Below are positions 8,185 through 21,989 of a DNA stretch of 64,000 nucleotides, piece by piece. The notes under the pieces are model-generated. The model was not told the origin of the DNA. It worked only from the letters and a program-made list of their open reading frames with translations, and did no database searches. Source of the stretch: Escherichia phage SHEFM2K; the sequence record PQ390715.1; one strand, given 5' to 3'. Position 1 is the first letter of the stretch; each line of letters starts with the position of its first letter. Position numbers and translations under genes: made by a program.

Positions 8185-8217
8185 ATTATAGCAAAAAGGG
8201 CCGACCGAAGTCAACCC
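8185..8217 (-). promoter_or_regulatory. terminator-promoter cassette (PeSL-like), copy 1
   Basis: Minus strand GGGTTGAC-TTCG-GTCGGCCC hairpin + T5 + TGcTATAAT; TTGACT inside 5' arm sits 18 nt from -10. Confidence 0.7.
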
Positions 8218-8224
8218 TTTTGTT

Positions 8225-9649
8225 TTAGATAATTTGTACTTCACCATAGATCTGCACAATTTGCTTTCCTGGATTCTCTTCAATGAGTTTAAGGAAAGAT
8301 TTCAATATTTTTTCATGATCTTCATAATCTGCTATTCGCATGAAATTATAACCATTTGATATGGCATATTTGTTTTTAAATTCATCTCTCTCTCTCAATT
8401 TCAAATATGATTCATATGTTTTATTAAAATATGCTGTTGGATTGTAATGTTGCACTCCATCTTTTTCTAATAATAAATTAAATTCTGGAACATACAAATC
8501 ATATGGCAACAAGTATCCAGTTTCAGGATTTCTACAATTTTCAAAACGTTTTTGTGTGATATAATTGTCGAACAAAGGATAAATTATTTCTGTTAAAATC
8601 TTACCATCAGTGGATGTATTAAAGTCAGAACCTCCTTTTAATTGTATAAATTTTGGATATATAAACATACCATTTTCAAGTTCTAATTCAATGATAGTAT
8701 TAATTCCTTTAACATTACCAATTATTTTATTAAATTGAAATTTTTTACCCTTGCAATATTTTTTCGACAATTTTATTATTCTTTCTTTTGTATATCTTGG
8801 ATTACCTTTCCAAGTTGGATGCATAATCTTATCGTAACTAGTTGTATATGAAATATCATCAACTGTATATTCAACCATGCTCCTAGTACTGTTATATTCT
8901 ACAATTTCATATTCATTGATATTTAGTTTTTTCATTTTTTCTGAAATTCGATTATTCACCTCTTCATTAGTTATATTCGGTAGATTACCTTTCCATTCAT
9001 TATAGATTAATATATTAAAATCAACATATTTTTTTCCTTTCTGAGTTGGTTGTTCATATTCAATACAACTAAACACACCATTAAATTTACTAATTGAGAT
9101 AAATCTCAAATTATGTTCATTTAATTTTTTTATAGATATATTTTCTACTTCTTCATATGAATAACATGGGCTTCCCCCTTTAAAATCTTTTATTAATGAA
9201 TTGAATGATATAGAAAATATTCTTTCACGTCCTTCAATTGTATAATTGATTATAGTTCGTGCTCCATTAAATGATGCAATGCTATGAAAATTAAATTTAT
9301 CATATTTTTTAAATATATAAATGGACTCATTTATAATTTGTTCCAAGGTTCTACATATTCTACCTGGTTTATATCTATGATCAGCGAATTTTGTTTTGAT
9401 ATTTGATATTGAATGTTCATATACCATATTATCATATTCAAAATACACATGCGTATGTGAACTTTTCCATGTTGGATCTTTAAAACCAATAAATTTAATA
9501 GAATTTACATTTTTAGAGAATAGTTCCATTAAATCTTCATAATGCAAATAAGGTGACATTTGGTTATGATTTTTTTGTATATATGAATTATAATGTGTAT
9601 AATCATAATATTCATAAGTCGTTCCAAATTTATCAATATAAATTTTCAT
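8225..9649 (-). CDS. putative endonuclease with C-terminal Vsr/DUF559-like PD-(D/E)XK domain and repeated N-terminal beta-rich modules
   Basis: 474 aa; C-terminal ..YLLPYDLYVPEFNLLLEKDGVQH..YNFMRIADYE resembles Vsr/DUF559 nuclease core from memory; internal repeats (..SKFNGVFSCIEYE.. / ..ASFNGARTIINYT..). Confidence 0.5.
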   Translation of the reverse strand: MKIYIDKFGTTYEYYDYTHYNSYIQKNHNQMSPYLHYEDLMELFSKNVNSIKFIGFKDPTWKSSHTHVYFEYDNMVYEHSISNIKTKFADHRYKPGRICRTLEQIINESIYIFKKYDKFNFHSIASFNGARTIINYTIEGRERIFSISFNSLIKDFKGGSPCYSYEEVENISIKKLNEHNLRFISISKFNGVFSCIEYEQPTQKGKKYVDFNILIYNEWKGNLPNITNEEVNNRISEKMKKLNINEYEIVEYNSTRSMVEYTVDDISYTTSYDKIMHPTWKGNPRYTKERIIKLSKKYCKGKKFQFNKIIGNVKGINTIIELELENGMFIYPKFIQLKGGSDFNTSTDGKILTEIIYPLFDNYITQKRFENCRNPETGYLLPYDLYVPEFNLLLEKDGVQHYNPTAYFNKTYESYLKLRERDEFKNKYAISNGYNFMRIADYEDHEKILKSFLKLIEENPGKQIVQIYGEVQII

Positions 9650-9879
9650 TTACTTAAAACTCCTTTCCAGTACTGAACCCGTCCAGCACCATTAATCTTA
9701 GCTTGAATCTTATCTTTTTCGACAAGACCTTCTTTGTAATCGATGGAAGTATTATCACACTTAATTACATCCAAGTCAAGTACTTCTTGTGTACTTAATG
9801 AAGTATTGTCTGCAATTTGTTGTAATGTAATTATATCAGTACCGAAGAATTCTGCTAAACGTATAAAAGATAGTTTCAT
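9646..9879 (-). CDS. hypothetical protein
   Basis: 77-aa ORF; GAGAGG RBS; driven by PeSL copy 2. Confidence 0.55.
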   Translation of the reverse strand: MKLSFIRLAEFFGTDIITLQQIADNTSLSTQEVLDLDVIKCDNTSIDYKEGLVEKDKIQAKINGAGRVQYWKGVLSK

Positions 9880-9905
9880 GTATTACCTCTCGTTTCGATA
9901 AAATA

Positions 9906-9937
9906 ATTATAGCAAAAAGGGCTGACCGAAGTCAACC
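9906..9937 (-). promoter_or_regulatory. terminator-promoter cassette (PeSL-like), copy 2
   Basis: GGGTTGAC-TTCG-GTCAGCCC + T5 + TGcTATAAT. Confidence 0.7.
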
Positions 9938-9944
9938 CTTTATG

Positions 9945-10304
9945 TTATTCTAACTCACTCATTGTGGTGATAGTTAATCCAATTTCTTCTGCAATGTTGC
10001 ATAGCAAACCAACTGCATTACGAAGAATATCAGTGTTGTCCACCGAGAATGATGAGTTTTCATTTACAGTTGAAGACTCAATGTAGTACTCAAAATAACG
10101 AGAAGTTGAACGCACAACTTTAACACCTTCATACTTCTGTAGTTCAGAGTTGATACGCTCGATGAGCGAATCTTCCAGTACTCGATAGTCACCATTCATT
10201 CCACGTTTCCATCCATCAGCAGGACGGAAATAAAAAGTTTTTGTACGTTGAATTGTTGAGATTGTTAGTGGGTTGTATTCTGCGATTTCACTTAAAGATG
10301 CCAT
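9945..10304 (-). CDS. hypothetical protein
   Basis: 119-aa ORF between two promoter elements. Confidence 0.55.
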   Translation of the reverse strand: MASLSEIAEYNPLTISTIQRTKTFYFRPADGWKRGMNGDYRVLEDSLIERINSELQKYEGVKVVRSTSRYFEYYIESSTVNENSSFSVDNTDILRNAVGLLCNIAEEIGLTITTMSELE

Positions 10305-10330
10305 GTTGTATTCCTCATTTTCTTTGTTAC

Positions 10331-10359
10331 ATGATACTGAAAGATAAAACTGGTGTCAA
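10331..10359 (-). promoter_or_regulatory. sigma70-type promoter (TTGACA-17-TATCAT)
   Basis: Minus strand TTGACA ccagttttatctttcag TATCAT, preceded by A/T run after denV stop. Confidence 0.55.
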
Positions 10360-10367
10360 TGTTTTTT

Positions 10368-20512: not shown

Positions 20513-20532
20513 TACTATACCTTATAAACAAA

Positions 20533-20555
20533 AAGGAATTCATTTAAGAATTCCT
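20533..20555 (-). terminator. rho-independent terminator
   Basis: AGGAATTC-ATTTAA-GAATTCCT hairpin with flanking A/T runs. Confidence 0.6.
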
Positions 20556-20564
20556 ATTTTACAA

Positions 20565-20858
20565 TCATTTATCTAACATACCATTGTGCAAACGTTCATA
20601 TACTTCAGTTCGACGCAAATTAACAATATCTTCTGCGTATTTTAATGTAAATGCCCATGCTTTTGGATGTACGTTAAGCTTCATACGAATTCGATTTTTC
20701 ATCAACTCTCCACTTAAACGAATAAATTCGTGTACACCACGACTACCGTATTCAGTAATTAAATCATTAATGTACATATCACGAAGAGTTTCATCTGCAC
20801 ATTCTTTAACCATTTCTACGTCAGCGACGATGCTTTCATTAACTGAAGTACTGATCAT
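20565..20858 (-). CDS. hypothetical protein
   Basis: 97-aa ORF. Confidence 0.55.
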   Translation of the reverse strand: MISTSVNESIVADVEMVKECADETLRDMYINDLITEYGSRGVHEFIRLSGELMKNRIRMKLNVHPKAWAFTLKYAEDIVNLRRTEVYERLHNGMLDK

Positions 20859-20870
20859 TTTTAATTTACC

Positions 20871-21137
20871 TTATTTAAATTCGACTGTAATTTTATCACC
20901 TTCAACTACGAACTTACAGTTGTAGCGACGTGCCATATCCATGTACATATGCTCAGAGTACCAAGGAACATCAATAATCGGATGCTCTGCATATTGTAGA
21001 ACTTCACGGTCGCCCACTGTAGTAATGATGAAAGGAATGTTCATCTCTCGTAAAAACAGTTCAGCACCAGGAGAACGATTAATAAATTCAGTATCATTAC
21101 GTAAAGTAAATCCATTATATTGTAATTTAAGCTTCAT
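20871..21137 (-). CDS. hypothetical protein
   Basis: 88-aa ORF. Confidence 0.55.
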   Translation of the reverse strand: MKLKLQYNGFTLRNDTEFINRSPGAELFLREMNIPFIITTVGDREVLQYAEHPIIDVPWYSEHMYMDMARRYNCKFVVEGDKITVEFK

Positions 21138-21151
21138 ATGTTATCCTCTAT

Positions 21152-21496
21152 TCAATACCATTCTTTAAAACCATTAAGTTCGGCTACGTGAGTGATTATA
21201 ACACATATAACATTCAGGTCAAGTATAATTTGATCATAATTTAATTTTATACGATCATCATTATATGCTCTAAAAACTACATCGTAATCAAAGAAATTTG
21301 CGTTTTCATCATTCATTGAAACGATTCGGTATCTACGTCTTCCATCTGTATTGAATATAGTTAAACACTGTTGAAACTTTCTCATTAACTGTTTAGATAG
21401 GATATTATAATATTCAATATCTTTTTGTGAATTACGTGGGTCATCAGGAAGATAGAATGAAACAAATTTCTTTAATTCTATTTGAGTTTTATCCAT
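21152..21496 (-). CDS. hypothetical protein
   Basis: 114-aa ORF. Confidence 0.55.
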   Translation of the reverse strand: MDKTQIELKKFVSFYLPDDPRNSQKDIEYYNILSKQLMRKFQQCLTIFNTDGRRRYRIVSMNDENANFFDYDVVFRAYNDDRIKLNYDQIILDLNVICVIITHVAELNGFKEWY

Positions 21497-21929
21497 ATAT
21501 TACCTCATGTGTTTCTCTTTTACTTTGTCGGAACTCATCCTTTGCTTCCTTAACTGACATGATACGAACTAATTTAGCACTACCGCAATAGTACTGAACC
21601 TGATTACGACCAATGTCTACATGGTGGTCTGGAACTTCATATACAGATATAGCAAACCCAGCACGATGCAATTTACCCAAGTCCATAGTGAAGAATCTGA
21701 ACAAATCTTTCAAACTTTGACAGCCAAATACCCATCCACTTTTGATTGAATAGATCCCATCCTCAGTTGGTTCAGGTTGGAATTGAGAAGGTGTAGTCAT
21801 AAGCAAACGGTCAAATCCATTTTTAGTACTGTATCTGGTTGAATACCGTGCAAACGGACCTACAGTTCGTGCAGGATCTAAGTTAGGTTCAATGTAACTA
21901 AATTTAAGTTCAAAACGATATACATACAT
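21489..21929 (-). CDS. hypothetical protein
   Basis: 146-aa ORF; GAGGA RBS; driven by PeSL copy 8. Confidence 0.6.
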   Translation of the reverse strand: MYVYRFELKFSYIEPNLDPARTVGPFARYSTRYSTKNGFDRLLMTTPSQFQPEPTEDGIYSIKSGWVFGCQSLKDLFRFFTMDLGKLHRAGFAISVYEVPDHHVDIGRNQVQYYCGSAKLVRIMSVKEAKDEFRQSKRETHEVIYG

Positions 21930-21958
21930 AATTAAAATCCTCTAATTTATTAAGAGAA

Positions 21959-21989
21959 TTATAACAAAAAAGGCTGACCGAAGTCAACC
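21959..21989 (-). promoter_or_regulatory. terminator-promoter cassette (PeSL-like), copy 8
   Basis: GGTTGAC-TTCG-GTCAGCC + T6 + TGtTATAAT. Confidence 0.7.

Follow-up and report, generated by a model that had tools for sequence, protein, structure and literature searches.

Promoter early stem-loop elements (PeSLs) were described in the T4-type phages RB49 and phi1 as repeated intergenic units in which an AT-rich tract is combined with a near-consensus sigma-70 promoter and a stem-loop. The stem-loop may sit in the stretch separating the -35 from the -10 box or overlap these boxes, overlap with the -35 box being one of five subclasses; promoter and terminator activity of the units and mini-circles running from PeSL to PeSL were shown in the same work (Arbiol et al. 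2010, PMC2839356). PeSLs were extended to PST/T4 and nt-1/KVP40 by Comeau et al. (2014, PMC4122927), the nt-1 consensus being A3-4G3-loop-C3T3-4 with TTGYVH-N17-TAWWAT. For the RaK2-like jumbo phages CBB (PMC5259590) and PA5oct (PMC7318152), the passages available from both papers report RpoD-like early promoters with UP-like elements. Here, a 64,000-nucleotide (nt) stretch of Escherichia phage SHEFM2K (sequence record PQ390715.1), referred to as the window, was analyzed. It contains eight copies, numbered E1 to E8 (Table 1), of a terminator-type hairpin whose 5' arm carries the -35 sequence of a putative promoter. It is considered likely that these units are PeSL-type composite terminator/promoter cassettes of the early region of an Asteriusvirus phage and that they mediate modular shuffling of genes.

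The window was searched with the family pattern GGGTTGACNNNNGTCAGCCC, allowing at most 2 mismatches, and the chance level was obtained from 100 shuffles. Eight distinct sites of the RGGTTGAC-loop-GTCRGCCY type were found, all on the minus strand and within 8198-21990, against 0.01 matches expected by chance; the observed count was equalled in none of the 100 shuffles. The loop is TTCG in six copies, TTCA in E3 (10844) and TAAG in E7 (18729). A first-pass annotation, made by a model from the letters of this DNA, had listed eight minus-strand copies between 8.2 and 22.0 kb, one with a TAAG and one with a TTCA loop, and the pattern search returned the same set. With 3 mismatches allowed on the 18-nt core, no additional family member was found elsewhere in the 64 kb. 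A profile of 49 distinct 77-nt units was also used for an nhmmer search of the window, which yielded one extra, diverged hairpin (30413-30460, E = 7e-7) and otherwise antisense images of the known sites only. No -10 box stands at the family spacing in this diverged copy, which is therefore read as a predicted terminator only; some 25 nt farther on there is an extended -10 (TGATATAAT). As with PeSLs, the copies are clustered, with eight in 14 kb and the single diverged hairpin in the remaining 50 kb. For phage 121Q as represented in IMG/VR, 8 pattern matches were obtained, 7 in the corresponding region and 1 elsewhere, the TAAG-loop copy falling outside the pattern used there. A repeat of the miniature inverted-repeat transposable element or repetitive extragenic palindromic type was ruled out by the single orientation, the strict stop-to-start placement and the lack of flanking duplications in the aligned copies.

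All eight copies fold as RNA hairpins of -14 to -19 kcal/mol (z = -4.6 to -6.0 relative to shuffles), and each stands between an A-tract on its upstream side and a T-run on its downstream side. The family thus has the makeup of intrinsic terminators, a GC-rich hairpin at a gene end with a U-run directly after it. In the GenBank record of phage G17 all eight hairpins are annotated as ARNold terminators and zero promoters are annotated; similarly, the elements are annotated as terminators only in the record of phage UE-S1. Placement directly after a stop codon, as had been claimed for every copy, was confirmed for seven, in which the stop lies 0-10 nt ahead of the stem; at E3 this adjoining stop is that of an HNH gene remnant of 76 nt, and the nearest intact gene upstream ends at a distance of about 95 nt. 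It did not hold for E8 (21971), where the TGA of TTGAC is itself the stop of the upstream open reading frame (ORF). Following a custom scan, about 24 minus-strand terminator-like hairpins were counted in the window. Among these, a TTGAC-bearing stem together with a -10 box at the right distance was confined to members of the family; the other terminators have unrelated stems and no such -10.

TTGACT straddles the junction of stem and loop, its first five bases ending the 5' arm and its final T opening the loop. In E1, E2, E3 and E8 (hairpins at 8198, 9919, 10844 and 21971) it is followed by 18 nt and TATAAT with TG, each copy matching 11 of 12 consensus positions. E4 (15842) has an 18-nt spacer and TATGAT with TG, E7 (18729) an 18-nt spacer and TATCAT without TG, and E6 (18546) a 17-nt spacer and TATACT, again without TG. 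A Shine-Dalgarno sequence (GAGG) and an ATG lie 25-40 nt downstream of the -10. A sigma-70-type promoter with an AT-rich tract upstream, as in PeSLs, is thereby predicted in all units except E5. Alignment of the copies with their flanks bore out the first-pass description of TTGACT within the 5' arm and a T-run behind the stem. More generally, the proposed compact composite of terminator-type hairpin and -35 was sustained computationally by the hairpins, the fixed distance of the -10 and the relatives, with its activity remaining predicted.

Over the region, the sequence is 96-99% identical to the Asteriusvirus jumbo coliphages BAU.Micro_ELP-22 (ELP-22), slurp01, phAPEC6, 121Q, PBECO4 and G17, by which the source phage is assigned to Asteriusvirus (121Q/PBECO4-like jumbo coliphages) and not to Straboviridae. 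From 11 genomes (the window and ten relatives), 82 copies were collected using a pattern that allowed at most 3 substitutions; every expected orthologous position was recovered despite this limit. Most of them have an A-tract at positions -1 to -7. Positions 2-9 (GGTTGACT) are invariant in all 82 copies. Variation in the stem is limited to the 3' arm (A or G at positions 16 and 17, both of which pair with U) and to the outer pair (G-C, A-T or G-T), and the loop varies too. A T-to-C change in the 5' arm, by which the stem would be strengthened and the -35 destroyed, did not occur among the 82 copies. At 18-nt spacing the hexamer is TATAAT in 48 and TATGAT or TATCAT in 14 of the 82. Full pairing is seen in 82/82 copies for the sense RNA and in 8/82 for the antisense RNA; the structure is therefore, to judge from the aligned copies, maintained at the level of the minus-strand transcript. 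All eight units were found at the same relative positions in G17, ELP-22, 121Q, slurp01, phAPEC6, vB_Ec-M-J and BF17, and seven in Ecwhy_1, for which the compared stretch ends short of the E1 position; the genes between the units differ among the relatives. In the vB_Ec-M-J clade (vB_Ec-M-J, BF17 and Ecwhy_1), E5, E6 and E8 carry GTCAACCT where the window clade has GTCAGCCT, and this same G-to-A change in paralogous units suggests exchange or gene conversion between copies.

Comparison of gene content across relatives, which had been suggested along with the first-pass annotation, disclosed three exact fusions of units and an enrichment of breakpoints at units. UE-S1 has 5 units only, 3 of which are exact element-to-element fusions with flanks matching both parental units. 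The first has the upstream flank of E7 and the downstream flank of E6 and lacks the 37-amino acid (aa) ORF; its hairpin is chimeric, with the GGG of E7 and the TTCG..CCT of E6. Three genes are missing in the E5/E4 fusion; the E2/E1 fusion lacks the endonuclease gene as well as the 77-aa gene. Two of the three fusions, E7/E6 and E5/E4, also occur in ph0011, which has an additional 3.4-kb block and an additional unit between E3 and denV. At least four unrelated alleles of the gene upstream of E1 are found among the relatives, with the A-tract as the junction in every case, and E2 and E3 have several different upstream neighbours. For the enrichment test, the eight 95-nt units were taken as 5% of the sequence; 7 of 22 breakpoint clusters, grouped by eye, lay within units (binomial P = 8e-5). 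Under a null restricted to gene junctions, 7 of 14 breakpoints fell at units and 8 of 34 junctions carried a unit (P = 0.03). As described for PeSLs, indels and replacements between close relatives thus start or end at units.

The elements of the window agree with PeSLs at every sequence-level point compared. As in RB49/phi1, PST/T4 and nt-1/KVP40, the units join a G/C-clamped stem-loop to a sigma-70-type promoter and an AT-rich tract within the interval from a gene's stop codon to the ribosome-binding site (RBS) and ATG of the gene that follows, and they are repeated, clustered among small genes of unknown function and tied to indels and replacements. Hairpins with the -35 in their 5' arm correspond to the published overlap subclass (PMC2839356). 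When a 78-nt unit of the window was used in blastn, Vibrio phage nt-1 was retrieved directly, with a site that reads AAAAGGGTTGC-TTCG-GCAGCCCTTTTTTTG-TATTAT...TATCGAAACGA and fits the published nt-1 consensus (PMC4122927). The likeness to PeSLs of T4-type phages, drawn in the first-pass annotation, is thereby backed by both a match and a subclass. In nt-1, too, the -35 lies within the stem, the loop is TTCG and the leader is similar; the window stem, however, is one pair longer (GGGTTGAC versus GGGTTGC), its -35 matches the TTGAC consensus in full and is followed by an 18-nt spacer. Compared with the PeSLs of RB49 or PST, the eight copies are far more uniform. They differ from known PeSLs in their carrier, an Asteriusvirus jumbo phage instead of a member of the Straboviridae. 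The kind of element is thus already known and its terminator half was annotated in G17 and UE-S1, Asteriusvirus being a new phage group for PeSLs.

Intrinsic terminators with a cUUCGg tetraloop, which Tuerk and co-workers reportedly found in 1988 to be frequent in intercistronic regions of T4, share with the window units a GC-rich stem closed by C(UUCG)G and a subsequent U-run. Unlike these units, ordinary terminators carry no -35 in the 5' arm and are not followed, at a constant spacing from the U-run, by a -10. In the RaK2-like jumbo phages, as far as the passages available from the CBB (PMC5259590) and PA5oct (PMC7318152) papers go, TTGAC/TATAAT promoters are likewise found among short hypothetical genes and the host polymerase acts early. 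For PA5oct, a distant relative that uses host RNA polymerase, TTGAC/TATAATA promoters were placed at transcript starts and conserved stem-loops at stops by RNA sequencing, according to the same portion of that paper (PMC7318152). In those passages promoters and terminators are listed separately, and the passages searched contain no description of a composite unit or of a link to indels. Neither PeSLs nor a composite unit in Asteriusvirus are described in the papers on Sharanji, fEgEco12, UE-S1 and G17 (Korf et al.), the subscription-only literature (RaK2, GAP32) being outside the scope of this comparison.

The exact hairpin-core pattern was also used to scan IMG/VR, where the core was found at 67 distinct sites, 55 of them with a T-run. 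TAnnnT at a spacing of 17-19 nt was present at 54 sites, against about 0.11 per site by chance, and 48 of the 54 had TG; wherever the hairpin resembles a terminator, a -10-like box nearly always lies downstream. Carriers are RaK2, 121Q, GAP32, Yersinia and Erwinia jumbo phages, Aeromonas phage 65, KVP40-like phages, contigs of about 150 kb and Brochothrix phage A9. In blastn with the 78-nt unit, the ~150-kb phages Cronobacter PBES 02 and CR9 and Pectobacterium POP15 also matched. Across these lineages the core is nearly identical (AAAGGGTTGACTTCGGTCAGCCCTTTTTGCTATAAT) and keeps a non-essential G-U wobble. The leader CATCGAAACGA just after the -10 is found at E2 (9880-9905), at E3 (10805-10830), at the nt-1 PeSL and in several unrelated viral contigs, which may be due to shared ancestry of the entire unit or to constraint acting on the transcript start. 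That the unit is a linker spreading horizontally among phage families, so that any gene between two units could be exchanged across families, is regarded as doubtful; if it were true, an exchanged gene would arrive insulated and already expressed. The simpler alternative is convergence, as nearly every base is fixed by TTGAC, the cUUCGg loop, the U-run, TG and TATAAT at 18 nt. The 63-aa ORF upstream of E8 (21984-22175) has homologs in RB49-like, rV5-like, T7-like and Acinetobacter phages and is therefore best read as a promiscuous small phage gene. Transfer of this ORF together with a unit found no support: in the feature tables of RB49 and rV5, only 10 and 7 nt separate it from the next annotated gene, too short a gap for a downstream unit, and going by these tables it is not flanked by such units in either phage. 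In other jumbo-phage contigs (seven loci including 121Q), the unit is followed by a conserved stretch, ..ttggcagata..(a/c)cccat(t/a)gggtgcgg.., and not by an RBS and ATG. This stretch, which is not present in the window, may be a small RNA; an Rfam search with it gave no match.

The following course of events is proposed from the sequence and its comparison. Polymerase arriving from the upstream gene would transcribe the A-tract, RGGUUGAC-UUCG-GUCRGCCY and UUUUU, upon which the cUUCGg-capped hairpin and the U-run would release the transcript as at any intrinsic terminator. The same DNA bases would serve as a host sigma-70 promoter, with the A-tract at the position of an UP element and TTGACT of the 5' arm as the -35; the remaining stem and the T-run would fill the 18-nt spacer, followed by TGnTATAAT. 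Transcription would begin anew some 7 nt past the -10, giving a leader of 25-35 nt that contains the GAGG ribosome-binding site. The early region would thereby be divided into insulated units of one to thirteen genes. Exceptions would be E5, which lacks a -10 and is therefore taken as probably a terminator only, and E6, which would couple its terminator to the late-type TATAAATA promoter of a virion gene. Termination and re-initiation by the host polymerase are assumed by analogy with intrinsic terminators, sigma-70 promoters and the PeSL experiments in RB49/phi1, and host-polymerase use is further supported by analogy with PA5oct, within the portion of that paper cited above. As direct repeats of 36-75 bp, the units would allow homologous recombination to delete, insert or swap the intervening genes, leaving one hybrid unit; the fusions from unit to unit are seen in the relatives, and homologous recombination is inferred as their cause. 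With G at stem position 17, the G-U pair would be kept in the sense RNA, and the antisense hairpin and a mirror-image TTGAC would be broken. Disabling these two is hypothesized to be the purpose served by the conserved wobble.

Several points weigh against the cassette reading or narrow it. Promoter and terminator activity of the units in this phage are predictions. An extended -10 or variant, attributed to each copy in the first-pass annotation, is found in six copies, is weak at E6 (18546) and is missing at E5 (16927), where TAAATA stands at its place and no acceptable -10 exists; moreover, the 18-nt spacer is one above the sigma-70 optimum. The 82 copies come from close relatives, are non-independent and were collected by pattern. 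The breakpoint list was condensed into clusters by eye, and about two-thirds of these lie away from units, for example at 9650, 10364-10399, 14706-15120 and 20287-20873. HNH or GIY-YIG genes, or what remains of them, occupy the variable slots at E1 and E3, and such genes may move on their own. Finally, each of the fusions may represent either loss or gain of cassettes. The missing -10 of E5 lends some substance to the idea that the units are intrinsic terminators only, with a promoter likeness that is a by-product of AT-rich intergenic sequence. The G17 and UE-S1 records annotate terminators alone, and promoter-like matches in this AT-rich region numbered 84 against 86 expected from shuffles. 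Nevertheless, this is judged very improbable, given that the -10 stands at one fixed distance in 62 of the 82 copies and behind nearly all T-run sites (54/55, against about 11% by chance) in unrelated lineages, mostly with TG, that the stem-strengthening T-to-C never appears in the 5' arm, and that the remaining terminators of the window, with their unrelated stems, lack such a -10.

The points on breakpoints and endonuclease genes would be accommodated if the units were regulatory only, with breakpoints found there since surviving indels respect gene or operon boundaries and free-standing homing endonuclease genes insert nearby. Many indels lie at unit-free junctions, the endonuclease genes and remnants occupy the slots at E1 and E3, and the junction-only null gives just P = 0.03, yet this explanation is held to be rather unlikely. 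The three UE-S1 fusions, two of them also in ph0011, join units exactly and leave one hybrid unit; no endonuclease gene is involved in the E7/E6 and E5/E4 fusions, the former with its chimeric hairpin in UE-S1; three paralogous copies share the same G-to-A in the vB_Ec-M-J clade; and PeSL-to-PeSL circles were demonstrated experimentally in RB49 and phi1 (PMC2839356). The authors of that study speculated that the stem is the target of a DNA-binding protein, and endonuclease genes are indeed nearby, so that the palindrome might act as a DNA site bound or cut by a phage protein (recombinase, homing endonuclease or repressor) and not as an RNA hairpin. This is given hardly any credence, as the palindrome is imperfect and intact only through G-U pairs in the transcribed sense, the loop varies freely, a T-run always follows the stem, and phages of Gram-positive hosts, which have no such proteins in common, carry the same core. 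The reading as PeSL-type cassettes is accordingly preferred.

Table 1. Units E1 to E8, the diverged relative and their neighbouring genes (window coordinates; -35 and -10 boxes read 5' to 3' on the minus strand)
Unit	Span	Strand	Hairpin	-35	-10 and other elements	Neighbours
E1	8185..8226	minus	8198-8217 (GGGTTGAC-TTCG-GTCGGCCC), A-tract, T-run	TTGACT 8214-8209	TGC-TATAAT, -10 at 8190-8185	after stop of HNH gene 8225-9649; ahead of AAA-ATPase-like gene 7386-8156
E2	9906..9947	minus	9919-9938	9935-9930	TGC-TATAAT 9911-9906	between 119-aa gene 9945-10304 and 77-aa gene 9646-9879
E3	10831..10872	minus	10844-10863 (TTCA)	10860-10855	TGC-TATAAT 10836-10831	HNH 3' remnant 10864-10940 directly upstream; ahead of denV 10368-10802
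E4	15829..15870	minus	15842-15861	15858-15853	TGT-TATGAT 15834-15829	ahead of gp0.7-like protein kinase gene, likely start ATG 15800
E5	16914..16955	minus	16927-16946, T-run		no usable -10 (TAAATA)	after 517-aa virion protein gene; ahead of 83-aa signal-peptide gene 16633-16884
E6	18527..18574	minus	18546-18565	18562-18557	17-nt spacer, weak TATACT 18539-18534; late-type motif TATAAATA 18534-18527 (minus), overlapping the weak -10	ahead of 517-aa virion structural gene 16956-18509
E7	18716..18757	minus	18729-18748 (TAAG)	18745-18740	TATCAT 18721-18716 without TG	after 127-aa virion protein gene; ahead of 37-aa membrane-peptide ORF 18573-18686
E8	21958..21999	minus	21971-21990	21987-21982	TGT-TATAAT 21963-21958	TGA in TTGAC ends upstream 63-aa ORF 21984-22175; ahead of gene 21489-21929
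Diverged relative	30413-30460	minus	AAGGGTTGGC-TTAT-GCCAACCTTT, T-run			downstream of TAA stop, outside the 8-22 kb cluster

Most genes that the first-pass annotation had placed between cassettes were recognized again. The product of denV has the Pfam domain Pyr_excise, the kinase-like gene corresponds to a T7 gp0.7-like protein kinase, and the secreted-protein genes are represented by several small proteins with signal peptides, two of which are mutual paralogs. The longest kinase ORF (675 nt, annotated in 121Q) starts within the -10 box of E4 (window 15800-15833). The likely start of the gene is the ATG at 15800, which is preceded by GAGG and yields the 642-nt version found in the G17 and ELP-22 annotations. 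A 137-aa signal-peptide ORF (14688-15101) is missing from the six closest relatives and has 66% identity in the vB_Ec-M-J clade, where its homologue lies directly behind E4, replacing the kinase gene; it is a paralog of 15870-16289 (39% amino-acid identity).

The supposed ipII/ipIII-like paralogs, by contrast, could not be upheld as such. The two genes, 16956-18509 (PHROG 20398) and 18755-19138 (PHROG 16530), are virion-structural paralogs matching PHROG 'virion structural protein' families and not internal-protein families, and a Pfam search with both gave no match. Their N-termini (MKSMERNQ... and MVDKWNKK...) do not resemble the T4 capsid-targeting sequence. With 3 copies against 13.2 expected, the T4-type late-promoter motif TATAAATA is under-represented in the window; its only two minus-strand copies, at 18527-18534 and 19175-19182, sit 18 and 37 nt ahead of the start codons of these two genes. 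A gp55-like late sigma factor and ATAAATA late motifs were reported for this phage group in the portion of the CBB paper available (PMC5259590). Given this report and the placement of the motif, both virion genes, which lie inside an early-looking region, are therefore probably late genes fenced by terminators of the family, and E6 more likely feeds a late promoter for the virion gene than a sigma-70 promoter. Within the 517-aa virion structural gene, a 295-bp in-frame indel was noted at 17302-17596; the long form is present in the window, slurp01, G17 and 121Q, the short one in ELP-22, phAPEC6, UE-S1 and ph0011.

The slot at 8225-9649, which encodes an HNH endonuclease of 474 aa in the window, holds the same 474-aa type in ELP-22, an HNH protein of 372 aa in G17 and vB_Ec-M-J, a 487-aa endonuclease in 121Q and a 628-aa 'exonuclease ABC C subunit' in slurp01 and phAPEC6; an endonuclease gene is lacking there in UE-S1 and ph0011. 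At 10864-10940, the position of the 76-nt HNH 3' remnant, an intact gene is present in vB_Ec-M-J (EcMJ_557) and none in G17 and 121Q. The HNH insertion site is bounded exactly by the stop of gene 10958-11227 on one side and by the E3 A-tract on the other.

For annotation, the units would mark the limits of early transcription units; at least one start codon, that of the kinase gene, is corrected, and two virion genes in the early region appear to be insulated by family terminators, their expression probably depending on late promoters. As a tool for phage engineering, the unit would offer a ready-made 40-nt insulator with a predicted strong promoter, and the slots between units are places where natural relatives tolerate insertion or deletion. 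The PeSL concept itself dates from the papers of 2010 and 2014, and no new question is opened here. The relatives provide unusually clean natural cases of cassette loss or gain from unit to unit, and with the units described PeSL cassettes would be extended from classical T4-like phages to the ~350-kb Asteriusvirus jumbo phages.

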